This document shows, piece by piece, positions 6,171-20,429 of a stretch of DNA of 64,000 bases; position 1 is the first letter of the stretch; each line of letters starts with the position of its first letter. Position numbers and translations under genes: made by a program. The notes under the pieces are model-generated. The model was not told the DNA's origin. It worked only from the letters and a program-made list of their open reading frames with translations, and searched no databases. Source of the stretch: Candidatus Bathyarchaeia archaeon (GTDB lineage: Archaea > Thermoproteota > Bathyarchaeia > Bathyarchaeales > Bathycorpusculaceae); NCBI GenBank assembly GCA_038883795.1, contig JAVZLK010000004.1:14496-78495 (forward strand). Direction: 5' to 3'.

Positions 6171-9100
6171 TTGATTTCGAAAGAAGATATCGAGAATATG
6201 GCGGCAGAAATCGCTGCAGAGTACGCACATTCTCCTATAAGACTTATTGAAGATTCCAGATCTGAAAGGAATATTGCAGAGAGTGAACAGGGAAGATATG
6301 TCCTCGAGCTTCTACAAAATGCAGATGACGCACAAATACCAGATACTTCAGATGACACTATCAAAATTGGGCAACCTGAAGTTGTTTTTTTGGTCACAGA
6401 TAAATATCTCTATTGCGCGAACGGTGGCTTTCCAATATCAAAAGAAGGACTAAGGTCAATTTGCCGTGCCTTCTTAAGTCCTAAGAGAAAAAACGCTCCG
6501 GTGATCGGTTTTAAAGGTATAGGTTTTAAATCAGTCTTAGCGTTAACGGAACAGCCTGAAATTTTTTGGTCGGATGGAGGTGTTTACTTCTCGAGAGAAC
6601 GAACTTTTGAATATTTAAAACTAAAAGCACCCAATGCCTTAGCTGATGTAAATCCTGATGAGGTGCCAATCCTTAGATGCCCTCATCCCATCGATCTGAA
6701 TTTAGCGCTCAAAGAAGACCCAACTCTCAAGAGTTTACTAACCAATTCAGCAACAGTGTTTCGATTCCCGCTGATCAATGACACAACCAGACAGAATCTC
6801 GTTAACAGGCTTAATGATATTAAAGCTTCAACGGTGCTGTTTCTAAATAATCTTAAAACAATCAAGATCGTAATTGATGGAGACGTCAAAATCTACAGGA
6901 TTTCAAAAGAGAACGCTAAATTTGATGAGGGAAATGGTGTCACTTATGACATTGCCCATGCGCACATACAAGATGAGGAAAGCAAGTCTAACTGGATAAT
7001 AATTTCGGGTATTTATAAACTTCCTCTTGAAATAAAAAAACGATTGTCGCTTACTTGGAAGGATACTGATTATATAAGAATATCTTATGCCGTTGAAGTG
7101 AATGATTTAGGCAAACCTATTCCGTGTTCAGAGTACCCCCTTCTGCATGTGTTCTTTCCTACGGAGGAACGAATTCCGTTTCGAATACTCATACACGGAA
7201 CTTTCAAAACCAATGTGGATAGACGTCTTTTGACCCAAGAAGATCCGTTGAACGACTACGCCATAACAAAGTCTATTGAACTACTTAGAGACAAAGTATT
7301 ACCCCTAATATCAGAAGAACTCGATGACCCAGGCAAAATTATGGATTTTCTTCAACCTCCTAAAGACTTAAACATATCAAGCACGGAAGGGAAGATATGG
7401 ACTGAATTGTGCGAAGACCTCAGAAATCATAAATTTGTGCCAAACCGTCGCAATAACAAAAAGCTTTCTCCACAAGAAGTGATCTTGTCCCCTATCCCAC
7501 GTGATGTGGAAGTTTTCAAATATCTCACTGAAAATAAACTAACTGACAGGTTTTGCTATGATACTATTGACATAAACGAAGACAGACGGCAAACATTGCA
7601 AAACTTTGGCGCAAAGGTTTTAGAAGTGACAGAATTGCCTAAATTTTTCGAGGATAACTTTACCCATGAAATCAAATGGGTTGCAAATATGTATGCACTT
7701 TTGGATAACATTTCAAGCTATTTAGAATCTATCAATCCAACGCAAAAGAAAGTATTTATTGAAGAGATCAAAAAGAGAAAATTGCTTCTTCTCGCAGGCG
7801 GTGAAACAGTAGCCGCGGAATTGATAACCCATGAAGGGGCGATTTTCTTCCCTCCGACAGCAGCTGTGCCAACTCCCCCCAAAGGATTAAATTTGCGTTT
7901 TCTGGAACGTTCAGTAATAGACGAGTATCTAAAAATCATTTCGAAGACGGTGAGACAGACATTCTTCGTAAGAGATCTCGAAATCGAGGAATATGCCGCA
8001 ATTCCAGTAATTACGAAGATTATCCTTCCTGCCATAAGAGAATTCTGGCAGCAATGGCCTACTAAAAAGATCTTTGAACCAGAAAAAGTATTGCAGTTTC
8101 TTTACGCTCTTTTAGGCGATGATCTGCCTAAAGATGAACGGTTAAAGGCGATAAGTCTAATGCCAGTCCCCGTAAAGGGTGAGCCCTATTATGCTCCTGC
8201 ATGTGATACATATGCGTCGAAAGAATGGACTGGAAATGATAGCCTCGAATTCATTTATGGTTCCGAGTCTGCCTTCTTAGCTCCTCCCGATAACATGTTG
8301 AATGATGAGCTATTTGGAAAAATGAAATTGTTTTATCAATGGCTTGGAGTAGCTTGGCTACCACGAATTATCTCACAATTCAAGGATTTTGAAGAAAACA
8401 AATGGCGTTCATGTCGTTGGACATATGAAAAACGCTTTGAAAGCCCCCACTCTAAACTTCCGAATTGGGAAAAGTATTGCAAAACGGTTTACGAAGAATG
8501 CGAACCTCTTGGCGGCGAAAGCCCATTTCAAAAATATGAAACATTGTTAGAAACCTCTTGGGCTCTTGATAGATTTGACAAAATAGTAACAGACCCTGAG
8601 AAATCCAGAAGGCTTTTGTCAATACTCGCTGCCAACTGGGACACGCATTACTCTAAATTTGTAAAGTGTACAGTTCTTTGGCGCACCAAGTCGCAACAAT
8701 ACTACCGATTTTCGGAGGTTACTTCGTACTTCTTTTGGCAATTGACCCGTAGTTCATGGGTACCGTCATCAAAATTTGATATTTGGTCGTTCAGAAAACC
8801 CTCTGAGCTGTTCATCAAAACAGAATCTGTTTACAATGAACTTGGCGATCTAATACCGTATGTTGAAGTTAGTACAGATGGAGAACGCATACTACTTACA
8901 AGGCTTGGAGTAAAAACGAGTCTTGATGACTTAACAGCAGAAGATTGGTGGCGCATAGCAATAGACATACCTCGATTATTAAATCCTGATGAAAGAGTTG
9001 TACGGCCTCTTTACCGAAAAATGATGCAAGTAAAAGACATAGAAAAAGAGAGTAATAACAGAACAGATTTTATGTCAAACGGTAAGCTTTTGGCATTAGT

Positions 9101-10463
9101 AAATGGTAAACCAGAATTTGTCGATAGAGACGAAGTTTGGTATGTTGAAAGTGAAGAATTCAGAAGACTGTTTGGTAAACACATTCCAATATTCATTATA
9201 CAGCATGAAGAGAGAAGAGGAGCCGCAATAAAGAGAACTTTTGAGATAAACGTGCTTGAGGATTATCTGCACCCAGAATTAGAAATTGGTGAAGAAGACA
9301 AACCGACATCAGATATGTTAAATCAGTTTTTGGATAGTGTTAAGGCATTTTTAGTAGCAAGAGTCTATGCACAAAGACCAAGCAGAGAAGACGAAGATGT
9401 CTCAGCTATAAGGCGACTTAAATTGAAGACCGTTAAGTCACTAAAAGTAAGTTATAACCTAAATCTCGGAGACAAAACAATTGAAGTCGCATCCGATAAG
9501 GGAACATACTTGGATAAACAGAACAGCATCATTTTTATCGATGCTGGAAGATTCCATGTAAAAGACTTGAAAGCTATAGAAGAAGATCCAAAGTTAGCCA
9601 GTGAATTGGGCGTGCAAATTGCTTATTATTTGGGTATAGACCTTGCTAATGATTTCATGCTTTTGATAAAGAGCAATGACGAGTTGAGATACGAAATTTT
9701 GGACAGGGCGAACGTTTCGAAAATGGACATTGAAAACTTTAGGATCTCTTTAAAGCAGGAAGCGGTACCAAGACTTCCTATTGTTACCGCTATACCTACC
9801 GTCCAGCAAACTCCGCAGCTCATGGTTCATATAACATCAACGCCAACTATTAGCGAAAATTTGCCACAACCTCAAATTAGACCTTTGGAACTTTGGACGC
9901 CATCAGAATTAGGTTTCAAAGAACCTATCGAGATGACCCCAACTCCCGAAATGAAACATGCTGCATCCGGCTCTGGTAGTGGAAGTGGAACATCACATCC
10001 TGCTTACATAAGCGATCAAGAAGAACGCAAGAAAGTCGATCAAGCAGGTATTGACCTTGTGAAAGCATATGAAAAGCATAGACATGAACAGGAACATAAC
10101 TGTTCTCCCACAATAGAATCACGAGAGAAACAGAGCTGTGGTTATGATATCATTTCAGAATGTGACGTGGAAACCAGGCGTATAGAAGTGAAATCCTCGA
10201 AAGGAGACATGCAAGTTGTCGAACTTACTGCACTCGAATGGGATGCAGCTCGAAATGCAGAAAATCGTGACAATCATTTTCTTTACAGAGTGAGGTATTT
10301 GGATAAAAGAAGCGGAAAAGAACCTGAGATAGTGATAATAAGAAATCCATATTCTGCATTAATAGGAGAACCAACAAGGTTTAAAGTGCGCCTTAATAAA
10401 CTGCAAGGCAAGATGCAAATTGTCCAATTAACGAGATCAGAAAAAGAGCCAAATGCTCAATAG
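6171..10463 (+). CDS. Giant sacsin-like GHKL (HSP90-like) ATPase with C-terminal DUF3883 (PD-(D/E)xK-like) domain
   Basis: N-terminus has YVLELLQNADDA and GFKGIGFKSV. Linker is GSGSGSGTS. C-terminus GYDIIS..RRIEVKSSKGD..ELTALEWDAARN..HFLYRV fits the DUF3883 pattern. Start may be ATG at 6198. Confidence 0.7.
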   Translation: MISKEDIENMAAEIAAEYAHSPIRLIEDSRSERNIAESEQGRYVLELLQNADDAQIPDTSDDTIKIGQPEVVFLVTDKYLYCANGGFPISKEGLRSICRAFLSPKRKNAPVIGFKGIGFKSVLALTEQPEIFWSDGGVYFSRERTFEYLKLKAPNALADVNPDEVPILRCPHPIDLNLALKEDPTLKSLLTNSATVFRFPLINDTTRQNLVNRLNDIKASTVLFLNNLKTIKIVIDGDVKIYRISKENAKFDEGNGVTYDIAHAHIQDEESKSNWIIISGIYKLPLEIKKRLSLTWKDTDYIRISYAVEVNDLGKPIPCSEYPLLHVFFPTEERIPFRILIHGTFKTNVDRRLLTQEDPLNDYAITKSIELLRDKVLPLISEELDDPGKIMDFLQPPKDLNISSTEGKIWTELCEDLRNHKFVPNRRNNKKLSPQEVILSPIPRDVEVFKYLTENKLTDRFCYDTIDINEDRRQTLQNFGAKVLEVTELPKFFEDNFTHEIKWVANMYALLDNISSYLESINPTQKKVFIEEIKKRKLLLLAGGETVAAELITHEGAIFFPPTAAVPTPPKGLNLRFLERSVIDEYLKIISKTVRQTFFVRDLEIEEYAAIPVITKIILPAIREFWQQWPTKKIFEPEKVLQFLYALLGDDLPKDERLKAISLMPVPVKGEPYYAPACDTYASKEWTGNDSLEFIYGSESAFLAPPDNMLNDELFGKMKLFYQWLGVAWLPRIISQFKDFEENKWRSCRWTYEKRFESPHSKLPNWEKYCKTVYEECEPLGGESPFQKYETLLETSWALDRFDKIVTDPEKSRRLLSILAANWDTHYSKFVKCTVLWRTKSQQYYRFSEVTSYFFWQLTRSSWVPSSKFDIWSFRKPSELFIKTESVYNELGDLIPYVEVSTDGERILLTRLGVKTSLDDLTAEDWWRIAIDIPRLLNPDERVVRPLYRKMMQVKDIEKESNNRTDFMSNGKLLALVNGKPEFVDRDEVWYVESEEFRRLFGKHIPIFIIQHEERRGAAIKRTFEINVLEDYLHPELEIGEEDKPTSDMLNQFLDSVKAFLVARVYAQRPSREDEDVSAIRRLKLKTVKSLKVSYNLNLGDKTIEVASDKGTYLDKQNSIIFIDAGRFHVKDLKAIEEDPKLASELGVQIAYYLGIDLANDFMLLIKSNDELRYEILDRANVSKMDIENFRISLKQEAVPRLPIVTAIPTVQQTPQLMVHITSTPTISENLPQPQIRPLELWTPSELGFKEPIEMTPTPEMKHAASGSGSGSGTSHPAYISDQEERKKVDQAGIDLVKAYEKHRHEQEHNCSPTIESREKQSCGYDIISECDVETRRIEVKSSKGDMQVVELTALEWDAARNAENRDNHFLYRVRYLDKRSGKEPEIVIIRNPYSALIGEPTRFKVRLNKLQGKMQIVQLTRSEKEPNAQ

Positions 10464-11008: not shown

Positions 11009-11070
11009 TTTTTTGGTCTAGATTATTGTTCCATGGGTGTTTATATGTGGTTGTTGTTAGACATATTGTT

Positions 11071-11128
11071 TGGTTAGGCAGTTTAGCCGGCTAGTTGCAC
11101 TGTGATGTGGTTAGGCCGCGGCTTAGCC
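11071..11128 (+). promoter_or_regulatory. Two copies of a bipartite motif TGGTTAGGC-N(3/6)-TTAGCC upstream of the fibre locus (candidate operator)
   Basis: TGGTTAGGC at 11071-11079 and 11108-11116. TTAGCC at 11083-11088 and 11123-11128. Followed by the inverted repeat CGTGCC(11129-11134)/GGCACG(11143-11148). Confidence 0.35.
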
Positions 11129-11148
11129 CGTGCCGAGGGTGGGGCACG

Positions 11149-11157
11149 TTAAATATA
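11149..11157 (+). promoter_or_regulatory. TATA-box-like element TTAAATATA
   Basis: Ends 24 nt upstream of ATG 11181. GGAGAAGGAGAG lies between the element and the ATG. Confidence 0.3.
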
Positions 11158-11180
11158 CCCAAAAGAGGAGAAGGAGAGTG

Positions 11181-11789
11181 ATGAAAGAAATGGATACTAA
11201 GAAGTTGATGGCTACGTTTGCAATATTAATGATAGTTTTAGGCGTTGCAGGATTCGCTTATGCGCACTGGAGCGAGAAATTATACTTGATTGGTACGGTT
11301 AATACTGGTAGTGTATGTGCTGAATGGTCTTTTAGTGCCGAATTGATTAATAATACTAAGCCAAATTATGGACCTGTTGCCACACTCACATACAATTTTA
11401 GTGATACTGACCAAGATGGTTGCAATGACACGTTGACTGTGACTCTTAACAACGCTTATCCAAGTTTGACAGTTGAAGGAATGATTGACGTTCACAACTG
11501 TGGAACAATACCAATAGGAATATATGACTATGATTGGACTATATCAGGCGATCAAAGAATTGTGGGCGCTGTTGAACTCAAAAATGTGGACTTTTACTTG
11601 AAGGCGCCAAACGGCACAACATACCCAATAACAGTGGACATTGAAGATTGGATTAGAACAGAGAACCAGATTGACCCATGTTGGTCGCTTGTATGCGAAT
11701 TCGAAATACACTTCACAGAAGCCTTACCAGAAAATGCAACAGCAACAATTAACGCATGGATAGAGTTCTGGAACTGGAACGAACTCTAA
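11181..11789 (+). CDS. Secreted TasA-like fibre subunit candidate, paralog 1
   Basis: Signal-like h-region followed by GFAYAHWSEKLYLIGTVNTG. Shares DQDGCNDT, NxxYP, HNCGTIP, QIDPC and NWNE blocks with the next gene. Many N-x-S/T sequons. Track start 11130 (GTG) is probably too early. Confidence 0.55.
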   Translation: MKEMDTKKLMATFAILMIVLGVAGFAYAHWSEKLYLIGTVNTGSVCAEWSFSAELINNTKPNYGPVATLTYNFSDTDQDGCNDTLTVTLNNAYPSLTVEGMIDVHNCGTIPIGIYDYDWTISGDQRIVGAVELKNVDFYLKAPNGTTYPITVDIEDWIRTENQIDPCWSLVCEFEIHFTEALPENATATINAWIEFWNWNEL

Positions 11790-11807
11790 ACGGACAGGTG
11801 ATAACCA

Positions 11808-12449
11808 ATGACGCTCTTAAAGAAGTCTAAAACAGCAGTGCCCGCAATTGCCGCCATCGCATTAGTAGCTTTGGCAATTGTAGGCTTCACATACGCTCAC
11901 TGGAGCGAAACACTATGGCTAAACGGCACAGTAAACACAGGCAACATGTGCGCCGAATTCAAACCTCCAATAACACGCACGGATACTGGACTTGACTGGA
12001 GCTGTGGAGAAAACTTCACAAATCCTGACCCACATCAGATTGATAAAGACATAGGAAGCAGCAATGCATACTTTATGGATGTAAACCAAGACGGATGCAA
12101 CGACACAATAGTAATAGAATTAAACCATGTTTACCCATGTTACTATGAACACATGTCATTCTGGATACACAACTGTGGAACAATACCATGGAGAATATGG
12201 CGTGTAATATTTAACCCAGGAAACGTAACACTATACGATCGCGGATACTTAAACTTAGATTTAAATAACGATACAAAAGCTGACATAGAAATATACTGGG
12301 GCAACAACTTCGGCGACCAAGTAGACCCATGCAGTAAAGTAGACTTAAGCTTTGAACTTCACATTCTGCAACCAATTCCACAAAATTCCACACTGACATT
12401 CACAGTCACCATTGAAATGGTTAACTGGAACGAATATCCACCGCCATAA
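11808..12449 (+). CDS. Secreted TasA-like fibre subunit candidate, paralog 2
   Basis: GFTYAHWSETLWLNGTVNTG, NQDGCNDT, HNCGTIP, QVDPC, VNWNE. A clear paralog of 11181..11789. Confidence 0.55.
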   Translation: MTLLKKSKTAVPAIAAIALVALAIVGFTYAHWSETLWLNGTVNTGNMCAEFKPPITRTDTGLDWSCGENFTNPDPHQIDKDIGSSNAYFMDVNQDGCNDTIVIELNHVYPCYYEHMSFWIHNCGTIPWRIWRVIFNPGNVTLYDRGYLNLDLNNDTKADIEIYWGNNFGDQVDPCSKVDLSFELHILQPIPQNSTLTFTVTIEMVNWNEYPPP

Positions 12450-12480
12450 ACAACTTTGAAGAAACACACACAAATCCCCC

Positions 12481-12485
12481 TTTTT
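12481..12485 (+). terminator. Oligo-T tract after paralog 2 (possible archaeal terminator/attenuator)
   Basis: CCCCCTTTTTAG, followed by TTTAATTTAT before the peptidase gene. Confidence 0.25.
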
Positions 12486-12520
12486 AGTTTAATTTATGTG
12501 CACCTTGCGGAATAGGAAAA

Positions 12521-13837
12521 ATGAAGTACATATTCGGGATTCCCGTTCTAATCTTAACCGTTTACCTACTCACAAACCTATTTGTTCCATATGTCTTCGG
12601 GGGCGAAATGATATTTATTATGGATGCCCTCTTATGGGCAATTATAATCCCGCTTACAATTTTAATTTCAAAACTAACAAAAACAAACCTTCTCCAAACG
12701 GATAAAACCCTAATCCAACTCGCCACAATAATCGCAGTATTCCAAGTTTTCCTTTCAGTTTTTATGGCGTTTTTCATTGGTTTCGGCAAAAACGCCCTCA
12801 CATGGACGCCAAGGGCATTAGCCATATACTTCCCATTCTTACTCACGCCTTTCTTGGCAACCGAAATTTCACGGGCTTACCTCGCCCAAACAGTAAGCAA
12901 ACACAAACCAACCATGGCAATATTGCTCATAAGCATATTCTACACGCTTTTAACGCCAACAATACCCTACTATTTAGACTTAACATCGCCCCTCGCCATA
13001 GCAGAATTCCTAATCCGCACACTCATCCCAACCCTCGCCACAAGCCTATTAGCCACATACTTCGCCTATCTAGGCGGCTTACCCGCAAACCTAACGTATA
13101 TGGCTGTTCCAGTCTTCTTCACATGGTTCAGCCCCATACTTCCAAACATTCAATGGCAAACCCAATCCATATTAACCGTAACAGCCACAACCATAGGCTT
13201 CATAATCCTAGACCAAACAGTAAAACCTTTACCAACAGCCAAAGAACGCCGAATCCACCGCATCCGCCTAACCAGAAAAGGCAAAAGCCAAACCATATAC
13301 TGGACAGCCATCGCCCTAATAGCCGTAATCGCAGTATGGTCAACAACAGGCTTACTGGGCTTCACACCAACAATAATCGCAAGCGGAAGCATGCAGCCAA
13401 CACTTAATCCAGGCGACATAGCCATAGTAATAGCAACACCAGCAAAAACCATCAAAATAGGCGACATAATTCAATACCAAGCAACCGCACAAGCACCAAC
13501 AATACACCGCGTCATAGACAAATACACATCCGGCGGAACCTTATGGTTCATAACCCAAGGCGACGCTAATAATGCTCCAGACAACCCCGTAAACGAACAA
13601 CAAATAATGGGCAAAGTAGTCTTAACAATACCAAAACTTGGCTGGATAAGCATATACCTAAAAGAATTCTTCGCAAGCGCCTACACGTTCTTCACAACAA
13701 CATTGCCAAACGCCATAACAGAAGGCACAGCATTCACATTAAAAAACGGAGTCTACATAACAACAGCCCTCGCCCTAACCGCGTACTCATACTTACTACT
13801 CACATACCACGCAACAAAAAAGGAGGAAAAAACATGA
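12521..13837 (+). CDS. Archaeal-type (SipW/Sec11-like, S26) signal peptidase I fused to a ~250-aa N-terminal polytopic membrane domain
   Basis: C-terminal half has SGSMQPTL, GDI, IHRV and TQGDANNAPD boxes plus a terminal TM helix. N-terminal half has about 7-8 hydrophobic helices with no motif I recognise. Confidence 0.8.
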   Translation: MKYIFGIPVLILTVYLLTNLFVPYVFGGEMIFIMDALLWAIIIPLTILISKLTKTNLLQTDKTLIQLATIIAVFQVFLSVFMAFFIGFGKNALTWTPRALAIYFPFLLTPFLATEISRAYLAQTVSKHKPTMAILLISIFYTLLTPTIPYYLDLTSPLAIAEFLIRTLIPTLATSLLATYFAYLGGLPANLTYMAVPVFFTWFSPILPNIQWQTQSILTVTATTIGFIILDQTVKPLPTAKERRIHRIRLTRKGKSQTIYWTAIALIAVIAVWSTTGLLGFTPTIIASGSMQPTLNPGDIAIVIATPAKTIKIGDIIQYQATAQAPTIHRVIDKYTSGGTLWFITQGDANNAPDNPVNEQQIMGKVVLTIPKLGWISIYLKEFFASAYTFFTTTLPNAITEGTAFTLKNGVYITTALALTAYSYLLLTYHATKKEEKT

Positions 13838-14715
13838 AAAAACTGCTAATCACGCTAGCCCTAACAATAATCACATTAACAACAATAGGCTACAGCTACG
13901 CATGCACAAATGGCGGAATAAGCATAAACTGCTACTGCAACTGCGACGTCAAATTCACATGCGTAAAAACATGGGACAACGAAATAGAAAAAGACGTAGC
14001 AAACATAACCGCCAACATAATAGGCTGCACAGGCGACACAATAAAAGCCTACATAATAAATGCCTACCCATGCTACATGGCATACATAAACTATACAATC
14101 AAAAACACAGGATGCCGACCAATCCACTTTGAAAACCTAACAATAATCAACCCCAACCCAGAAGCTTTAGAAATAACAACAACAAACCACACATGCACAT
14201 GGCTCCAACCATGCGAAAAAATCAGCGGAATAACAACAGTCCACATACTCCAACCAGCAAAACAAAACTGGACCTACCAATTCCAAATAAAAATAGGCTT
14301 AAAATGCCAAGAAGGCTACCCACGCACAATAGGCTTCTGGAAAAACCAATTCGACAAAGCCCTATGCAAAGGCGGCAAACCCCAAATAGACCTAGACACC
14401 CTCGAAAACTACCTTAACCAAATAAGCGCAAACTCGCCAATCTATGAATTCACGGGAAACCGCACCCAAAAATTCCAAAACGCCTCAAAAATCCTCAGCC
14501 CACCATGGAATTCAAACATGAAAGCAAAACTCCTAGCCCACCTCTTGGCTTTGTGGCTAAACTATGTGGCTGGATGGACAGAAGGCTACAAATACAAAGG
14601 CATGACCGCCTGGGAAATAATCCAAGGCTCAGAAAACGCCCTACTAAACAACCAAACAAACAAGTATGAATACTGGAAGAACATGTGCGACGGCTTCAAC
14701 AACCTAGGAGGATGA
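13834..14715 (+). CDS. Cys-rich secreted protein, fibre-locus paralog 3
   Basis: Signal-like N-terminus ending IGYSYA, then CTNGGISINCYCNCDVKFTC. NAYPCY and KNTGCRPI echo paralogs 1/2. Start overlaps the peptidase stop (ATGA). Confidence 0.45.
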   Translation: MKKLLITLALTIITLTTIGYSYACTNGGISINCYCNCDVKFTCVKTWDNEIEKDVANITANIIGCTGDTIKAYIINAYPCYMAYINYTIKNTGCRPIHFENLTIINPNPEALEITTTNHTCTWLQPCEKISGITTVHILQPAKQNWTYQFQIKIGLKCQEGYPRTIGFWKNQFDKALCKGGKPQIDLDTLENYLNQISANSPIYEFTGNRTQKFQNASKILSPPWNSNMKAKLLAHLLALWLNYVAGWTEGYKYKGMTAWEIIQGSENALLNNQTNKYEYWKNMCDGFNNLGG

Positions 14716-14719
14716 TAAA

Positions 14720-15475
14720 ATGAGAAGGTACAGAAGAAACACGCCAATCAACAAAACCGTAAGCATAACCTTCCTAACACTACTATTAGCTCTAGCAATA
14801 ACAGGCTACAGCTATTCACATTGGACAGAAAAAATCCACATTCAAGGAACAATAACAACAGGCGCATGGGAAGAGAAAATCGCAAGCGTCCGCATAATGA
14901 AAACCCTAAACGGCTCCTTCACAGACCCCTATACAGGAAACGACATATCAACACCTACAAACCTAATCCACGTAGGAACCAACAAAAGCGCTGGATGGCC
15001 GACAAAATTTCAACTAATAATCACAGTCGAAAACAATGGCACAGTACCCATAGAAGATGCAGTACTAGATGTAATAGAAAATACTGTTGAACCAATAAAC
15101 GCCACACCAAGCAAAGGCACAGTAGAATGGTACTACAACCATACCACCGGCGGCGAATTCGTCCAAAACTTCCTAAATTGGACAATAGGAACACTCGCAC
15201 CCGGCGAAGTGGCAACCCTTGAAATATGGATACAAACACTACGCAACCCGACAGGAAAATATGAACCAACAAGCGAAAACCAACTTCTCGAAATTAACAG
15301 AGGCGCCAACATAACCGCAACCTCAGAATTAGGAACCCTCTTCGCGAGAACAGAAAACATAACCCTTACAATAGTAGACGATGGCACTCTTGGCAACAAC
15401 ATAGCAGTAATAACGCCTACATTACCATACTCTACTCCATGGGCAAGTGACACAAAAACAGAATACACGCCATAA
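14720..15475 (+). CDS. Secreted protein, fibre-locus paralog 4
   Basis: ITGYSYSHWTEKIHIQGTITTG N-terminus matches paralogs 1/2. ITVENNGTVPIEDA is an Ig-like/CARDB-like segment. Sequon-rich. Confidence 0.5.
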   Translation: MRRYRRNTPINKTVSITFLTLLLALAITGYSYSHWTEKIHIQGTITTGAWEEKIASVRIMKTLNGSFTDPYTGNDISTPTNLIHVGTNKSAGWPTKFQLIITVENNGTVPIEDAVLDVIENTVEPINATPSKGTVEWYYNHTTGGEFVQNFLNWTIGTLAPGEVATLEIWIQTLRNPTGKYEPTSENQLLEINRGANITATSELGTLFARTENITLTIVDDGTLGNNIAVITPTLPYSTPWASDTKTEYTP

Positions 15476-15582
15476 AGCAACACCTTTTACAAATTTTATA
15501 AAACAATATTGCCAAATTTGTAGTAAAACCTTTTAAAAAGAAACAATATTCAATACGATAAAGTATAGGTCGCAAACTATAC

Positions 15583-16593
15583 ATGAGAAGACCACCAAAA
15601 ACGATAATCCTCATTACCCTCTTCACAATTCTAACCCTAATCGCATTACTAACCCTTTGCATAGCACATCAAACCCCAACAGAAGAGACCACAACCCAAA
15701 TCCTCTGCACATACAGAAGCACAGCAGACTACGATTACACGGCAACACTAGACCCAAACAACATAATCTACAACGGCAAAACAACACTAAAACCAGGAGA
15801 AGGCACCATATACACAAAAATAACCCGCCAAATCAACCTAACCCTCACATACACATTCCACACGAGCATACCATCAGAAGCCACAATAACATACACCACA
15901 ACTAAAACACTAAGAGCATCAGCAATAGAATACCAAATAAGCCAGACGCAGCCCCAAACAACAAACGAAAAACAAATCCAAATTGAACTACCCCAAATAA
16001 ACAAAACAGAAACAGACCCAATAATAGCCAGAATCGCCTCAGAAATGGGAATAAGCTCAACCCCATACTACACAATAGAAATAACAACAACATTCACCAT
16101 AAACGCCAACACCACCATCAGCCCAATACATCAAACTTTTACGCCAACCCTTACAATAACATTCCAACGCACAGACCAAGGAGAAATAACAACAATAGGC
16201 GATTTATACCAAACAAAAACAGAAACAATAACAGAAAACCAAACAATAACCCGCCAAGACATAATAAACCAACGATACGCATCATACAGCCTAACCACAA
16301 TAGCCCTAGCAGGACTAGCCTTCTCCACATACTTCCACACAAAAACAAAACCCCAAACAAAAGAAACCCCCCTCGAAAAACTCATAGCCCCATACAAAGA
16401 CCTAATAATAGAAGCCGCAGAACCACCAAAAACCCCGCAAGAAACCACAATAATAAAGGTAGAAACAATAAAAGAACTAGCAAAAACAGCAGAAATCCTG
16501 GCAAAACCAATAATCCTAACAAGAAAACCCCAGCCAACACTAATAATAATAGACCAAAACACCACATACCAACACATAATAGAAACCAAATAA
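15583..16593 (+). CDS. T/Q/I-rich bitopic membrane protein, hypothetical
   Basis: N-terminal TM helix, long Thr-rich ectodomain, second TM helix (YSLTTIALAGLAFSTYF), K/P/E-rich tail. Confidence 0.45.
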   Translation: MRRPPKTIILITLFTILTLIALLTLCIAHQTPTEETTTQILCTYRSTADYDYTATLDPNNIIYNGKTTLKPGEGTIYTKITRQINLTLTYTFHTSIPSEATITYTTTKTLRASAIEYQISQTQPQTTNEKQIQIELPQINKTETDPIIARIASEMGISSTPYYTIEITTTFTINANTTISPIHQTFTPTLTITFQRTDQGEITTIGDLYQTKTETITENQTITRQDIINQRYASYSLTTIALAGLAFSTYFHTKTKPQTKETPLEKLIAPYKDLIIEAAEPPKTPQETTIIKVETIKELAKTAEILAKPIILTRKPQPTLIIIDQNTTYQHIIETK

Positions 16594-16678
16594 ACGGCTA
16601 TCCACCATTTTGCACACGCATGAGCATAAGCAACACTTTTACCTTCTAAAACAAAAATAACAATAAAGGCGAAAATAA

Positions 16679-18580
16679 TTGTCAACAATAAGCAACACCC
16701 TAAAAAGAACAAGCGACATCCTAAAAAACGGAGCTACAAAACAAATTCTAGAATACGAAAAAAGCTTCTCAACCATAAAAAACCTCTATAACGCTTTACT
16801 CTCAAACCTAATAAAAACAAACTTCAACCAAAAACAAGCTCACCAAACAGCAAAAAACTTCTTCCAAACAACAAACCTACGCTTCGCAGGAATAGACGGA
16901 ACCATGTACTCAAAACCCCTCTTCGATCTAGTCATATTCTTCGGAGGAGCATACGCATCAACAGGAACCGTAACTCTCCAAGAAAACAACAAACCAAAAA
17001 TAGAATACGACGAAAAAACCCTTCAACAGACTGCAGGCATATCAAGCGTAGTCCCCATATACGTCAACGAAATCCCAGACATAGACCAAACCTTCTTCGC
17101 TACGGAACAGCCAGAAGAAATAAGCCTAAACAAGCCGTTAATGGATGAAACAATAATAAACAACGCCACCATCGCCAACTGGATAATGACTTTCGCAGAA
17201 TATTACTTGGCTTATAAGCTTGCCACAGACCAAAACCAAAAAACCCACATAATCCTTTTAGACAGAAGCCTTTCCATAGAAAGGGCAAGCCTCCTCTATG
17301 ATACGTCAAAACGGGAATTATGGGAAAAGAAAAGCAGCATCCTAGGCTACAAAATAGACAACGAACCCATAGACATCAACGACCTAACCATAGCAAGACA
17401 ATACGTTTACAACCCAGCCTTAGGCTTACCGCCACCAAGGGCAGACTATCTACGCTATGCAATAATCCAACTAGCAAAACAAAAAGGAGGCTTAACAGAA
17501 GCTCAAATTCTTAAAGAGTTTGGCATAACAGACGAGAAGAGAGCAAAAAGAGTGAAAAGATACCTTGGACATTTGGTAAAAAGGGACATTTTAAAAGAGA
17601 AAAATGAAGTTTACACACTGAATCCAAAATATGCCACAACATGGGAACGCATCAAAAAACTTGTAACAAGCCTCGGCGACCGCTTCTTCTTTACAAAAAC
17701 CTCGGAAACAACAAGCCTCATGAAAATCTTGAAGGATGGAAAAGAGCATTGGTTGACAACTCTTGACATTGCTTTTCTGACGCTTTTCACTTTGCAAACG
17801 CTCATGGAAGAATGCTGGAATAGGCATGTTTTGCTTATAGGCATAACGAAAGATACGGCGGCAAGGGATTTCAAAAGGCAGCTCATTCCAATAATGAATA
17901 ATGAAGGCTTGTTGAAGGCAAATGTTACGCCTGAAGAGTTTGAAAAACTGCCAAACACGGACCGCATGATTCTCCAATCCACAAGCATTTTCAACCCGGA
18001 AGAAATTAAGCCTCCGTGGAGCCTTATTGAGTATGATTCAGCTTACAGAACAATGATTCCAGATAGGCAGGGCAGAAAGGGATACGTTTCAGGTGCCATA
18101 AAAAACAAGATAGGCTTAGAAAAAACTTTCTTAAAAACCTATGTGCAGTTAAGCCAAGCAAAAACAGATCCGCTTTTGCGCAGTAACGTCCTCTTGGTGG
18201 ACCGTTTGGTCTATCCAGAGTATGATTATAAGCCAGAAAATGTTGTGGAGTTTTGGAATGAGCTCAGCGATGGAACAAGAGAAACCGTTGAAACCATCTT
18301 ATTTGTGGATAAGGAAGTTCCTAATGAGATTCAGAATTTGGTTATGGTTGTTTTGGAGGCTATGGCACCGTCTAGCATTCCAGAAGCCTTCGGTCATAAC
18401 AAGCCTTTGTTCATCGCAGATAAAGTTGCAAAGTGGAATTATAACCAGTTCAAGCGTATAGTAGATACGACGGCTGATTGGATACTCAATAACCATAAAT
18501 TGAGAAAGTTCATATTTTACATGAGCACCTTTAGGGAGAGGAGGGCAACAATTGAAGCGGCAAGAAGAGAACAATTTTAA
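16679..18580 (+). CDS. NurA-like nuclease-fold protein
   Basis: FAGIDGT (NurA DGS-like motif I), IILLDRSLS, LIGITKDTAA, NKPLFIADKVAK. Overlaps the HerA-like gene. Confidence 0.5.
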   Translation: MSTISNTLKRTSDILKNGATKQILEYEKSFSTIKNLYNALLSNLIKTNFNQKQAHQTAKNFFQTTNLRFAGIDGTMYSKPLFDLVIFFGGAYASTGTVTLQENNKPKIEYDEKTLQQTAGISSVVPIYVNEIPDIDQTFFATEQPEEISLNKPLMDETIINNATIANWIMTFAEYYLAYKLATDQNQKTHIILLDRSLSIERASLLYDTSKRELWEKKSSILGYKIDNEPIDINDLTIARQYVYNPALGLPPPRADYLRYAIIQLAKQKGGLTEAQILKEFGITDEKRAKRVKRYLGHLVKRDILKEKNEVYTLNPKYATTWERIKKLVTSLGDRFFFTKTSETTSLMKILKDGKEHWLTTLDIAFLTLFTLQTLMEECWNRHVLLIGITKDTAARDFKRQLIPIMNNEGLLKANVTPEEFEKLPNTDRMILQSTSIFNPEEIKPPWSLIEYDSAYRTMIPDRQGRKGYVSGAIKNKIGLEKTFLKTYVQLSQAKTDPLLRSNVLLVDRLVYPEYDYKPENVVEFWNELSDGTRETVETILFVDKEVPNEIQNLVMVVLEAMAPSSIPEAFGHNKPLFIADKVAKWNYNQFKRIVDTTADWILNNHKLRKFIFYMSTFRERRATIEAARREQF

Positions 18581-20429
18581 CAGTTTCTGCTTCACAGATT
18601 TTGATGGAAGATTCCGCGCTAGGCTGGCAGCCGTCATACCAAGGTTTTTTGCTGCTGCTGAAGAGACTAAGCTTGCTGGCACAAGCGCTCGCTATCAATG
18701 TCGAATTAAGGTTGAGTATCAGAAGGATTTGATGGGCCTTTTGGAAGAGGGCATGCTTTTGGCTGTTAAGAATTTCAAGCAGTGTGGAGAAGGCGAAGAA
18801 CGTTTTACGCTTATGGAGATTAGCCGTGTTTGGCCTGAACATTTTGGTTTGAGGGGTTTGTCTGATCATGGTTATTATCCTATGCAGTTTGAGATTATTG
18901 AGCAGTCTGAGGAGGATTGGCAGACTGACGATAGGTCTACGATGATGGTTCAGATAGATGCCATACCAATAAATTATGATTTGATTGTTAATAGAAAATG
19001 TGAGTTTGAGTTTGTTAAAGGCTTCTCCTACCCAGTTGTGGGCAGCCCAGCCTATCTTTTAAACGGCGAAATGATAAATCGCATGTATAACCAGAAAATC
19101 GCTGAAAAGTTGGGAATAGACCCATCCAAAACTGTCAGTGACGCCCGTGCGGACCCGAGGCTTGGTTTAATAAAAATGTTTCAGGCAAGTGAAACTATAA
19201 TTCCAATTTATGTAGATTTTGAGAAGCTTGTGCGCTACCATTTCGGCGTTTTCGCCTTCACGGGCGGTGGAAAAAGCAATTTGATGTCGAATATTTTGAG
19301 AAGATTATTGTATCATACTGAGCAAACGAAGGTTGTGGTTTTTGACATAAGCTGCGAATACGTTTTCCTTTTACTTGACATTTTAACGGATCCAGCGATT
19401 TCTGCGAAGGTTATTATGGAAAATAGGATAGATTCGTTAGAGCAATTTTTCAATTCTGTTGTTAAACCACGAGAGTACGAGACTGACGAGCGGATTAAGA
19501 AGGGACTTAAATGTATAATGGACCAAGGCAGACTTTTCTATTACAAAAGACCACGGGGGAAGGTTCCAACTTACAGCGAGTTTATGGAAGAGCTGAGCGA
19601 CCAAAGGAAGGGTTCTGCTGACAAGCCAAATTACATGAATGCCATTGACGAGATTCGTGATGCCATATTAGAGTATATTGAAGAGCATGGGCTTATGGAA
19701 AATCAGGAAGTCAGCGAAGACTTTGTTAAATATATAGACGAAATATCGAGAGCCAAAGTGGAGGAGTTTAAGGTTCACGAAAAAAGCGGTTTGTATGCTT
19801 GGGCAACAACGCGGAGCATGCTTTTGGATAGGATAAAAAGGCGCAATGAAAGGGAAGAGAAGGAAACGGGCGGATTAGCCATAGAAAAAATTCGGGAGTT
19901 GCTTGAAGACAAAACAACGAGGCTTATTTGCATCTCAATTTCGGACCCATTCACGATAAAGGATTTGGTGATAACGCTTACGCAGGATTTGCTTGTTAGG
20001 AGAAAACGCAAATTCCAAGTTAAACCATACATCCTCCTCGTTTTCGATGAAGCACAAGAATTCATACCAAGCGGAGGCTCTGGCATCGATGCCAAATGTT
20101 CTGGGCATGTGGAAACCTTGCTAAGGCAAGGACGCAAATACGGCTTAGGCGTTTGCATCGCCACGCAACGCATAGCCTACTTGAATACGAATGCCCTACA
20201 ACAGCTTCACACATATTTTGTTGGCACTTTGCCAAGACCATACGACCGCCAACTTGTAAGCGAAACTTTTATGATAGATAAGGGCATCTTAGAGAAAACT
20301 TTGGAGTTTGCGCCTGGCGAATGGCTATTGTCAAGTTATATAGCGACTGGAATGGAGAACGTGCCAATATTCATAAAGGCGGACAACGCAGAAAACGAAA
20401 TAGAAAAATATCTTAAATCAAACGCTTAA
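18552..20429 (+). CDS. HerA/FtsK-superfamily (DUF87-like) ATPase
   Basis: Walker A FTGGGKSN, Walker B LLVFDEAQEF, RKYGLGVCIATQR. Start codon uncertain (TTG 18552 or downstream). Confidence 0.75.
   Translation: MKRQEENNFNSFCFTDFDGRFRARLAAVIPRFFAAAEETKLAGTSARYQCRIKVEYQKDLMGLLEEGMLLAVKNFKQCGEGEERFTLMEISRVWPEHFGLRGLSDHGYYPMQFEIIEQSEEDWQTDDRSTMMVQIDAIPINYDLIVNRKCEFEFVKGFSYPVVGSPAYLLNGEMINRMYNQKIAEKLGIDPSKTVSDARADPRLGLIKMFQASETIIPIYVDFEKLVRYHFGVFAFTGGGKSNLMSNILRRLLYHTEQTKVVVFDISCEYVFLLLDILTDPAISAKVIMENRIDSLEQFFNSVVKPREYETDERIKKGLKCIMDQGRLFYYKRPRGKVPTYSEFMEELSDQRKGSADKPNYMNAIDEIRDAILEYIEEHGLMENQEVSEDFVKYIDEISRAKVEEFKVHEKSGLYAWATTRSMLLDRIKRRNEREEKETGGLAIEKIRELLEDKTTRLICISISDPFTIKDLVITLTQDLLVRRKRKFQVKPYILLVFDEAQEFIPSGGSGIDAKCSGHVETLLRQGRKYGLGVCIATQRIAYLNTNALQQLHTYFVGTLPRPYDRQLVSETFMIDKGILEKTLEFAPGEWLLSSYIATGMENVPIFIKADNAENEIEKYLKSNA

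Follow-up and report, generated by a model that had tools for sequence, protein, structure and literature searches.

Several extracellular fibre systems of the TasA superfamily have been described. Within the operon tapA-sipW-tasA of Bacillus subtilis, a dedicated signal peptidase of the endoplasmic reticulum (ER)/archaeal type accompanies a jelly-roll subunit that polymerises by donor-strand exchange, and TapA acts as an accessory strand supplier. Pyrobaculum calidifontis makes an N-glycosylated donor-strand fibre from AbpA together with AbpB, and both TapA and AbpB have been proposed to give the first strand of their filaments. The haloarchaeal Tafi loci, which have related clusters in Thermococcales and Archaeoglobales, encode the pilins TafA and TafE, the peptidase TafD and the DUF5305 protein TafG; deletion of tafD blocks pilin processing, and the need for a dedicated peptidase has been shown genetically for TafD. 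The closest described system is that of AbpX, known from the fibril of Pyrodictium abyssi (PDB 9sj2/9rhp) and from the abpX locus of Zestosphaera tikiterensis (bioRxiv 10.64898/2026.01.04.697558). The AbpX family has an isoelectric point (pI) of about 4 and about 15% Asp/Glu, and its loci encode a peptidase with ten transmembrane helices, minor and tip subunits and a DUF5305 protein (bioRxiv 10.64898/2026.01.04.697558). Here we analyzed a stretch of 64,000 nucleotides (nt) of contig JAVZLK010000004.1, from a metagenome-assembled genome of Candidatus Bathyarchaeia; this whole stretch is called the window below. It contains a locus of six genes, g1 to g6, that we read, with a probability of about 0.8, as an AbpX-type extracellular matrix fibre cassette of the TasA superfamily with a dedicated signal peptidase of ten helices. 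We make this assignment because the locus shares with AbpX-type loci the sequence, the motif, the composition and the gene neighbourhood by which these are recognized.

The sequence of the first two products was compared with the structures in the PDB. The g1 protein matched chain 9sj2_C of the P. abyssi AbpX fibril with an E value of 1.4e-6 and no other structure significantly, and g2 alone matched AbpX with an E value of 0.018. When a profile was made from 23 proteins of the g1/g2 type encoded in related loci, the match to AbpX reached an E value of 8e-15 and covered residues 1-139 of 163, and the profile found no other credible match in the PDB. The identity between g1 and g2 is 35%, and the blocks DQDGCNDT, HNCGTIP, Q[IV]DPC and NWNE, which the original prediction from the DNA alone had reported as common to the two proteins, are indeed present in both. 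The mature proteins are as acidic as those of the AbpX family, that is, mature g1 has a pI of 4.05 with 14.4% Asp and Glu, and mature g2 a pI of 4.35 with 13.1%. We think that g1 is likely to be the major subunit of the fibre, and that g2 is a candidate for a minor or co-major subunit.

A further likeness lies at the N-terminus. In AbpX, the donor strand runs from W2 to I12; W2 serves as a 'Trp clamp', E4 binds calcium, and L6, L8, A10 and I12 are buried (bioRxiv 10.64898/2026.01.04.697558). The four secreted proteins of the locus have signal peptides that end, and mature parts that are predicted to start, with FAYA and HWSEKLYLIGTVNTG in g1, FTYA and HWSETLWLNGTVNTG in g2, YSYS and HWTEKIHIQGTITTG in g5, and YSYA and CTNGGISINCYCNC in g4. 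The end of these signals had been described as Y-[AS]-Y-[AS]; this pattern exists, but its more exact form is [FY]-[AST]-Y-[AS], in agreement with the -3/-1 rule for signal peptidase I. The start of the mature part with H-W-[ST]-E in three of the four proteins was seen as predicted, and in g1, g2 and g5 it extends to H-W-[ST]-E-x-[LI]-x-[LI]-x-G-T-[VI]-x-T-G. The feature that follows the predicted cleavage site in the AbpX clade is found in g1 (HWSEKLYLIGTV), g2 (HWSETLWLNGTV) and g5 (HWTEKIHIQGTI), and is lacking in g4 (CTNGGISINCYC). The predicted mature g1 begins at the His residue encoded at 11265 and reads H1-W2-S3-E4-K5-L6-Y7-L8-I9-G10-T11-V12, so that its register is the same as that of AbpX: W2, E4, L6, L8, a small residue at 10 and V/I at 12. 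Since the residues of g1 line up with the roles of W2-I12 of AbpX, we regard the HW(S/T)E motif as the AbpX donor strand. The strand H-W...G-T-V is also the most conserved part of the subunit family. In addition, the DQDGCNDT block aligns with the calcium loop of AbpX, in which D46, D48 and E52 correspond to D49, D51 and D55 of g1; that is, g1 keeps E4 together with D49, D51 and D55.

The third gene encodes the signal peptidase. Residues 255-381 of g3 matched the archaeal signal peptidase I model TIGR02228 with 94.2 bits (cut-off 51.85, E 7e-27), and g3 matched human SEC11A/C in the PDB with an E value of 9e-14. The residues S290, H329, D348 and D354 are invariant among 14 homologues of g3. 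The N-terminal 250 amino acids (aa) contain eight hydrophobic helices, which together with the anchor of the peptidase and a C-terminal helix give about ten, the number described for the peptidases associated with AbpX (bioRxiv 10.64898/2026.01.04.697558). The joining of an archaeal S26 peptidase to a polytopic domain of about 250 aa, one of the claims of the original prediction, is thus borne out. Against the SipW equivalog model NF046067, g3 scored 58.3 bits, for a cut-off of 190. This low score and the match to TIGR02228 indicate that g3 is a signal peptidase I of the archaeal/ER type and not an orthologue of SipW.

The eight-helix domain itself matched no Pfam family (14 homologues, E ≤ 10) and no relative in the PDB, where the profile matched the SEC11 part only. 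Its residues N91, E115, S117, R118, N190, N209 and D231, all polar, are invariant in the same 14 homologues, which suggests a functional site in this domain. A model of the full g3 made with AlphaFold2 from a 14-sequence alignment was too poor for use (mean predicted local distance difference test score (pLDDT) 48.9, predicted template-modelling score 0.25), and the helix count alone was used. The full-length fusion occurs in more than 120 protein clusters at 56-100% identity and in 35 species-representative genomes; the carriers are Bathyarchaeia, Hadesarchaea, Thermoplasmatales, Archaeoglobales, Nitrososphaerota, Dehalococcoidia/Chloroflexia and Clostridia (Holtiella, Sedimentibacter). With the eight-helix domain alone as the query, 399 clusters at 50% identity were found at E ≤ 0.001, so this module is a widespread membrane domain. 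Ten of the matches were scanned with Pfam: all seven proteins of at least 388 aa had an S26 domain, and the three of 248-277 aa showed no domain at all. Extra C-terminal extracellular domains (SdrD_B/SpaA-like, CBM96 and three LysM repeats) were observed in the proteins P0356, P0369 and P0437. These domains hint that the enzyme is positioned at the cell wall or matrix in bacteria.

The last gene, g6, encodes a protein that matched Pfam DUF5305 (PF17231) with 46.8 bits (cut-off 29, E 3e-12). It contains 21.7% Thr and 6.5% Gln. It had been called a Thr/Gln-rich bitopic membrane protein; the composition agrees, but there are two hydrophobic segments (aa 8-22 and aa 237-251), so it is not strictly bitopic. 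These segments agree with the described layout of DUF5305, in which an extracellular beta-sandwich lies between two helices and is followed by a cytoplasmic domain. A homologue of g6 adjoins the peptidase in 20 related loci. DUF5305 has been described as a peptidase accessory in AbpX and Tafi loci, where in the latter it accompanies TafD, and it is sometimes fused to signal peptidases. By analogy, g6 is proposed to be an accessory subunit of the signal peptidase.

The two remaining secreted proteins differ from the subunits in opposite ways. The g5 protein is homologous to the subunits only at aa 10-52 (E 2e-16), that is, over the signal peptide and the donor strand; its aa 96-184 matched DUF11 with 27.7 bits (cut-off 24.6), and the profile of the g5 family found nothing significant in the PDB. 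The g4 family, on the other hand, is homologous to the subunit family over residues 1-156 (hhalign 99.9%, E 3e-34), and AbpX was the best sequence match of its profile in the PDB (E 0.0012). The claim of four paralogous subunits therefore holds for g1, g2 and g4, which are homologous, but g5 is not a jelly-roll paralog, since its donor strand is joined to another kind of beta-sandwich, which is DUF11-like. As had been noted, YSYA is followed in g4 by a Cys-rich segment; in this N-terminal segment, CTNGGISINCYCNC, neither the Trp nor the acidic residue is retained. The mature g4 is basic (pI 8.2), has 13 Cys and is without the acidity of AbpX. An AlphaFold2 model of the g4 monomer (26 homologues) had a mean pLDDT of 85.3 and consisted of a disordered N-terminus, an eight-strand beta-sandwich at aa 39-158 and a six-helix C-terminal domain at aa 166-289. 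Foldseek found no structural neighbour of the six-helix domain in the PDB.

Two-domain proteins like g4 were also observed in bacterial loci. The six-helix module, with GFW[KR]N ... C-D-x-[FL]-N-N-L, is seen in the related loci L019 (4194-4781, Dehalococcoidia), L024 (3740-4651) and L026 (2517-3470), and in bacteria it stands behind an AbpX-like sandwich or, in the Dehalococcoidia locus, is joined directly to a donor strand. Because its contexts vary in this way, the module behaves as a portable end-piece.

If every subunit passes its N-terminal strand on to the following one, a chain must have one end with an unfilled groove and another end with an unused strand. By this logic, g5, which has a strand and no groove, suits the end with the unfilled groove, and g4, which has a groove and no competent strand, suits the end with the unused strand. 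We therefore think that g5 is likely to be an initiator or anchor by analogy with TapA and AbpB. Likewise, because g4 combines an AbpX-like fold with a degenerate N-terminal strand and an extra helical domain, it is likely, again judged by analogy and here with the tip proteins proposed for such fibres, to be an end cap or tip.

The six genes are co-directional and tightly spaced, as was first reported, and occupy 11190-16593 of the window on the + strand (Table 1). From g1 to g6, they are separated by 18 nt, 71 nt, an overlap of 4 nt, 4 nt and 107 nt. GenBank holds entries 100% identical to g1, g3 and g4, which are labelled 'signal peptidase I' or 'hypothetical protein'. The order of two subunits, peptidase, g4-type protein, g5-type protein and DUF5305 protein recurs in Bathyarchaeia contigs of other samples, and the flanks of the recurring cassette are unrelated; for example, in L001 it has ribonucleotide reductase and pseudouridine synthase as neighbours, whereas those in L002 are ferritin and inositol phosphatase. 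Thus, the gene set is kept together across Bathyarchaeia with differing flanks, which was one of the checks proposed for the prediction. In distant archaea and in bacteria, the peptidase adjoins proteins that carry [AG]-[WF]-[ST]-[DE]-x-[IVL]-x-[IV] after the signal end. Neither a second subunit gene nor a second S26 peptidase was found elsewhere in the 64-kb window. The match to AbpX, the homology of g4 and the conserved cassette support the idea of a dedicated peptidase with a multi-subunit fibre.

Several results weigh against the AbpX-type reading. No match to Pfam Peptidase_M73 (TasA/camelysin) was obtained at E ≤ 1 for g1, g2, g4 or g5. The search of the PDB with the subunit profile did not find any TasA chain at E ≤ 1, and AbpA, with which a comparison had been suggested, was likewise undetectable from g1 and g2 by sequence profile. 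With the Foldseek search of the g4 model against the PDB, nothing was found at E ≤ 0.001, and only generic beta-sandwiches appeared. The N-terminal segment of g4 keeps alternating hydrophobic residues and might still donate a strand, and g5 has no membrane anchor. At the calcium site, D18 of AbpX, one of the four intra-protomer ligands, is Cys in both g1 and g2, and g2 has Asn at the position of AbpX D46. Many relatives in Bathyarchaeia have Lys at position 4 and Glu at position 3, and the calcium dependence may therefore differ. Finally, the polymerisation of the subunits is a step that we infer.

The Cys residue at position 18 does not stand alone. Of 125 family members, 35 have C18, and 30 of these also carry a Cys in the calcium loop; no member has the loop Cys but lacks C18. 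The pair is formed by C18 (11316-11318) and C53 (11421-11423) of mature g1 and by C18 and C67 of mature g2. This co-variation and the geometry of AbpX suggest that a disulfide beside the metal site replaces one calcium ligand; the suggestion is drawn by analogy with the AbpX structure.

The original prediction had placed the locus in a TasA/SipW-like type. What stands of it is a fibre of the TasA superfamily, but the nearest relative is AbpX, not TasA or AbpA, and the M73 and SipW models fail. The model of the SipW-cognate signal, TIGR04088, gave 17.0 bits for g2 (cut-off 19) and no match at E ≤ 1 for g1, g4 and g5, and this signal model and Peptidase_M73, both proposed as checks, did not bear out the TasA/SipW-like label.

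We considered whether the secreted proteins could be monomeric surface adhesins, or binding proteins associated with the S-layer, that merely share a special signal peptide and do not polymerise. The mature parts contain many N-glycosylation sequons, as predicted (5, 6, 8 and 8), and such counts are typical of glycosylated surface proteins; moreover, g4 and g5 bear domains that are not those of a fibre, and polymerisation belongs to the inferred part of our reading. However, g1 and g2 are homologous over most of AbpX, a protein that was solved as a fibril, and they carry the exact donor-strand pattern, which would be useless in a monomer and is the part that the family conserves most. We therefore consider this explanation improbable. 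A cluster of pilins for a type IV-like pilus, of the archaeal adhesion or Ups-like kind, is far less probable still. It would agree with a weak match of g4 to the UpsA model NF046073 (22.6 bits, E 9e-5) and with one database that names a homologue of g4 'archaellum component FlaG'. But the score is far under the cut-off of 130 and the matching part of g4 lies within the AbpX-homologous domain, so we rejected both labels; in addition, the cleavage sites fit the -3/-1 rule for signal peptidase I and are not of class III (PibD), the locus itself encodes a signal peptidase I, and none of the six proteins matched a family of assembly ATPases or platform proteins.

It had also been asked whether the membrane domain of the peptidase might be a separate gene joined by an error, and since the window comes from a metagenome-assembled genome, the fusion or the whole gene set might in principle be an assembly or annotation artefact of one genome. 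The conservation data refute this. The fusion is real: as given above, over 120 independent clusters and the genomes of 35 species, which come from many studies, contain it; the eight-helix domain is found in about 400 clusters at 50% identity; and the order of the six genes recurs on long contigs of other samples.

From these findings, the AbpX-type fibre would be built as follows. The pre-subunits g1, g2, g4 and g5 would be exported by Sec, and g3, probably aided by g6, would cut them after [AST]-Y-[AS], so that the mature proteins would begin with H-W-[ST]-E-x-[LI]-x-[LI]-x-G-T-[VI], now exposed. This strand would enter the open groove in the jelly-roll of the next subunit, with the Trp as a clamp, and the Glu and the Asp-rich loop (DQDGCNDT) would probably bind calcium; in this way, the acidic g1 and g2 would polymerise into a thin fibril. 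As initiator or anchor, g5 would place its strand in the groove that the first subunit leaves open, and g4, with its degenerate strand and helical domain, would cap the other end as the tip. Many shaft subunits and few accessory proteins would result from a strong promoter, a leader and a Shine-Dalgarno sequence in front of g1-g2, together with the oligo-T tract that follows g2.

Compared with the AbpX loci, the present locus resembles them in the homology of g1 and g2, the amphipathic donor strand with W2 and E4, the acidic mature protein, the Asp-rich loop at the calcium site, and the adjoining signal peptidase I of ten transmembrane helices, DUF5305 protein, AbpX-like minor subunit and tip-like protein. 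A peptidase fused to a membrane domain, a layout with several subunits and the HW(S/T)E motif are all found in bioRxiv 10.64898/2026.01.04.697558, and the statement that no described system matches could not be upheld. That is, the family and the locus type were already described in January 2026, and this locus is an uncharacterised case of that type. Unlike the AbpX loci, it belongs to Bathyarchaeia, a lineage absent from the text of the preprint and from one of its supplements. It also differs in its two near-equal shaft paralogs, in the change of D18 to a Cys that co-varies with the calcium-loop Cys, in the six-helix domain of the tip-like g4, in a g5 that has only the donor strand on a DUF11-like body, and in the conserved leader before the first gene. 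Three of these features are specific to the lineage, namely the two paired Cys residues of the calcium site, the helical module of the tip-like protein and a g5 that shares the donor strand only.

The likeness to tapA-sipW-tasA consists of the ER/archaeal-type dedicated peptidase, the jelly-roll subunit with donor-strand exchange, an accessory strand supplier (TapA, and g5 by analogy) and an aromatic residue at P2' of the cleavage site. Unlike the products of that operon, those of the present locus do not match the hidden Markov models of Peptidase_M73/TasA, and g3 scores 58 against 190 with the SipW equivalog; SipW has no eight-helix domain, and the Bacillus operon has no DUF5305 protein. Like Tafi, the locus combines a signal peptidase of its own and its DUF5305 partner with several donor-strand pilins and with proteins for the tip or anchor. 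In contrast, TafD contains four transmembrane helices, carries an additional domain at the C-terminus and lacks the N-terminal eight-helix domain, and the Tafi pilins belong to another clade (DUF1102-like) and are exported by Tat in haloarchaea. AbpA and AbpB of P. calidifontis are alike in forming a donor-strand fibre of the TasA superfamily, in N-glycosylation and in a TapA-like accessory protein proposed to start the filament, but AbpA escapes the g1/g2 profile and the AbpA/AbpB operon has no dedicated peptidase. The chaperone-usher pili (Fim, Pap) offer a functional analogy only, in that a two-domain subunit with only a groove stands at one end and a subunit with only a strand at the other; there is no homology, no periplasmic chaperone and no outer-membrane usher, and the fold family is different.

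Table 1. Features of the fibre locus in the window.
Feature	Coordinates	Strand	Description
TATA-like box GTTTATATG	11039..11047	+	about 23 nt upstream of the leader
Conserved 5' leader	11072..11189	+	candidate structured RNA; comparative
g1	11190..11789	+	AbpX-like fibre subunit; open reading frame (ORF) starts possible at 11130/11181/11190
g1 donor strand HWSEKLYLIGTVNTG	11265..11309	+	W2, E4, L6, L8, G10, V12; aligns with AbpX W2-I12
g2	11808..12449	+	second AbpX-like subunit
Oligo-T tract after g2	12481..12485	+	preceded by a C-rich run; candidate partial terminator
g3	12521..13837	+	eight-helix domain and S26 signal peptidase
g3 eight-helix membrane domain	12521..13270	+	hydrophobic helices; invariant polar residues
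g3 S26 signal peptidase domain	13283..13663	+	ER/archaeal type; S290, H329, D348/D354
g4	13834..14715	+	AbpX-like beta-sandwich and six-helix domain
g5	14720..15475	+	donor strand on DUF11-like body
g5 donor strand HWTEKIHIQGTITTG	14819..14863	+	AbpX-type
g6	15583..16593	+	DUF5305 membrane protein

As shown in Table 1, the first gene is preceded by a further conserved element. Positions 11071-11189 are non-coding and hold a leader of about 118 nt. GenBank places the start of g1 at GTG 11178, and ATG 11181 is also possible; we chose ATG 11190 (MDTKK...), for which the spacing from the Shine-Dalgarno sequence fits, whereas in L005 the earlier ATG is followed by a stop codon. A long form starting at 11130 (MPRVGH...) was rejected, as L005 has a stop codon in the same frame and the stretch is the conserved hairpin described below.

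In the leader, GGUUAGGC (11072-11079) pairs with GCUUAGCC (11121-11128), about 40 nt downstream, to form a closing helix. The hairpin CGUGCC-GAGGGUGG-GGCACG follows at 11129-11148, and across the leaders it is invariant as CGUGCC-GAGNGUGG-GGCACG. The 3' part consists of GUUAAAUAUACCC and then of an extended Shine-Dalgarno sequence, AAGGAGAGUGAU (11171-11182), which we take to be complementary, with the exception of a single position, to the conserved 3' end of archaeal 16S rRNA. The leader hardly varies between loci, even where the identity of their g1 proteins is only 30-45%. Copies lie at 4663-4795 of L001, 4654-4797 of L002, 5638-5778 of L004, 4720-4848 and 5572-5705 of L005 and 5426-5558 of L010; some loci contain two, and each of these precedes a subunit gene. 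When metagenomes were scanned with the 18-nt core of the leader, at least 120 stretches were obtained, from which at least 56 unique leaders were kept over all loci; the remaining stretches are chance matches or unrelated elements. Among the matches listed, 47 of the 58 unique ORFs downstream of leaders carry [AGS]-[YFV]-[AGS]-x-[WF] by pattern match, and by eye all but two of the 58 look like secreted fibre subunits. A few of these subunits have the classical TasA-like signal Y-F/S-F-S-D.

We examined the structure of the leader by comparison. A covariance model gave 121.8 bits for the copy of the window (hit at 11057-11196) and found leaders only in Bathyarchaeia-type loci. In 62 distinct sequences, 99.2% of the cells of the closing helix were paired, and changes on both sides were seen for five of the eight pairs. 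All five measures of the whole structure were above those of all 500 shuffles, in an alignment that was fitted to the model and so leans towards structure. Divergent leaders keep the helix with other sequences, namely GGUUAAGC/GCUUAACC in L008 and AGGCAAGA/UCUUACCU in L014, and the segment that the helix encloses varies from 0 to about 50 nt. The hairpin served as the search key, so its covariation is uninformative. Folding of the single sequence of the window was no better than that of shuffles (z = -0.37), so the support for the structure comes from the comparative data only. Rfam contained no family for the leader; only SAM-II (SAM_alpha) appeared, below threshold (21 bits, gathering cut-off 36), and an S-adenosylmethionine (SAM) riboswitch was rejected on this ground and because the loop that would form the pseudoknot is reduced from 19 to 6 nt. 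Taken together, the alignments lend moderate support to the helix, and the leader is probably a structured RNA. It could be an RNA that stabilises or regulates the mRNA. An operator acting at the level of DNA is possible as well; the frequent G-U pairs favour pairing in RNA over a DNA palindrome.

With regard to transcription, related loci keep a TATA-like box upstream of the first GGTTAGGC, at the same distance of about 23-30 nt. The box of the window probably drives g1-g2, with the transcript starting near 11072. The original prediction had pointed to a T5 tract and a TATA-like box after g2, and both are present, the latter as TTTAATTTAT at 12488-12497. A C-rich run followed by T4-T6 was found after g2 in the window and in all seven related loci that were compared, which would fit an oligo-T terminator that lowers the expression of g3-g6. 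A scan for sigma-70 promoters and hairpin terminators was discarded, since its counts were not above those of shuffles and the models are unsuited to archaea.

The spacer between g5 and g6 (15476-15582) and the homologous spacers of L001, L002, L006, L007 and L012 contain the box TTTTA[AG]AA[AG]G, seen as the conserved box TTTTAAAAAG, and a motif CATAGGTCGCA about 8-10 nt before the start codon of g6, of which the copy in the window is GTATAGGTCGCA. The box and the motif suggest that g6 has a separate promoter and leader.

The neighbouring genes were also inspected. Directly upstream, at 6171-10463 (+) of the window, lies a gene for a 1430-aa protein that matched TmtA of the Tiamat anti-phage system (PADLOC, E 2.5e-126), with a sacsin-like N-terminus and NOV_C at the C-terminus; because the flanks differ in other genomes, we place it outside the fibre cassette. 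Directly downstream, at 16679-20429 (+), two overlapping genes encode a 633-aa protein with no family match and a 625-aa HerA-like (DUF87) ATPase (PADLOC HerA models, E 3.5e-40), which may form a HerA-based defence pair. With TmtA-like and HerA-like genes on its two sides, the fibre locus is thus flanked by genes of the defence type. The region of about 12000-18000 shows a strong strand bias, with a GC skew of -0.28 to -0.31 and an AT skew of +0.24 to +0.44; that is, the coding strand is rich in A and C, in agreement with products rich in Thr, Gln, Asn and Ile. This bias yields long spurious ORFs in other frames, for example at 12802-13407.

Taking one step further, we may ask whether the leader represents a new class of cis-acting RNA for the TasA-superfamily fibre genes of Bathyarchaeia and whether, at the same time, the eight-helix domain is a membrane platform for assembly. 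We put this double proposal forward tentatively and think it rather unlikely. If it were true, the leader would control the production of matrix, either by binding a regulator or ligand or through the stability and translation of the mRNA, and the eight-helix domain would couple the removal of the signal peptide to donor-strand polymerisation and so serve, in function, as the 'usher' of fibres that use no chaperone.

In sediments, Bathyarchaeia belong to the most abundant archaea. To our knowledge, next to nothing has been reported on their attachment to surfaces or their formation of biofilms, and our literature search found no paper that links Bathyarchaeia with TasA-type fibres. The conserved AbpX-type cassette gives a concrete and testable candidate for a matrix fibre in this lineage, and it extends the TasA superfamily, which crosses the domains of life. 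With a candidate capping protein for each end of the fibre, the polarity of assembly becomes testable, and the leader offers a handle on the expression of the fibre genes in an uncultured lineage.

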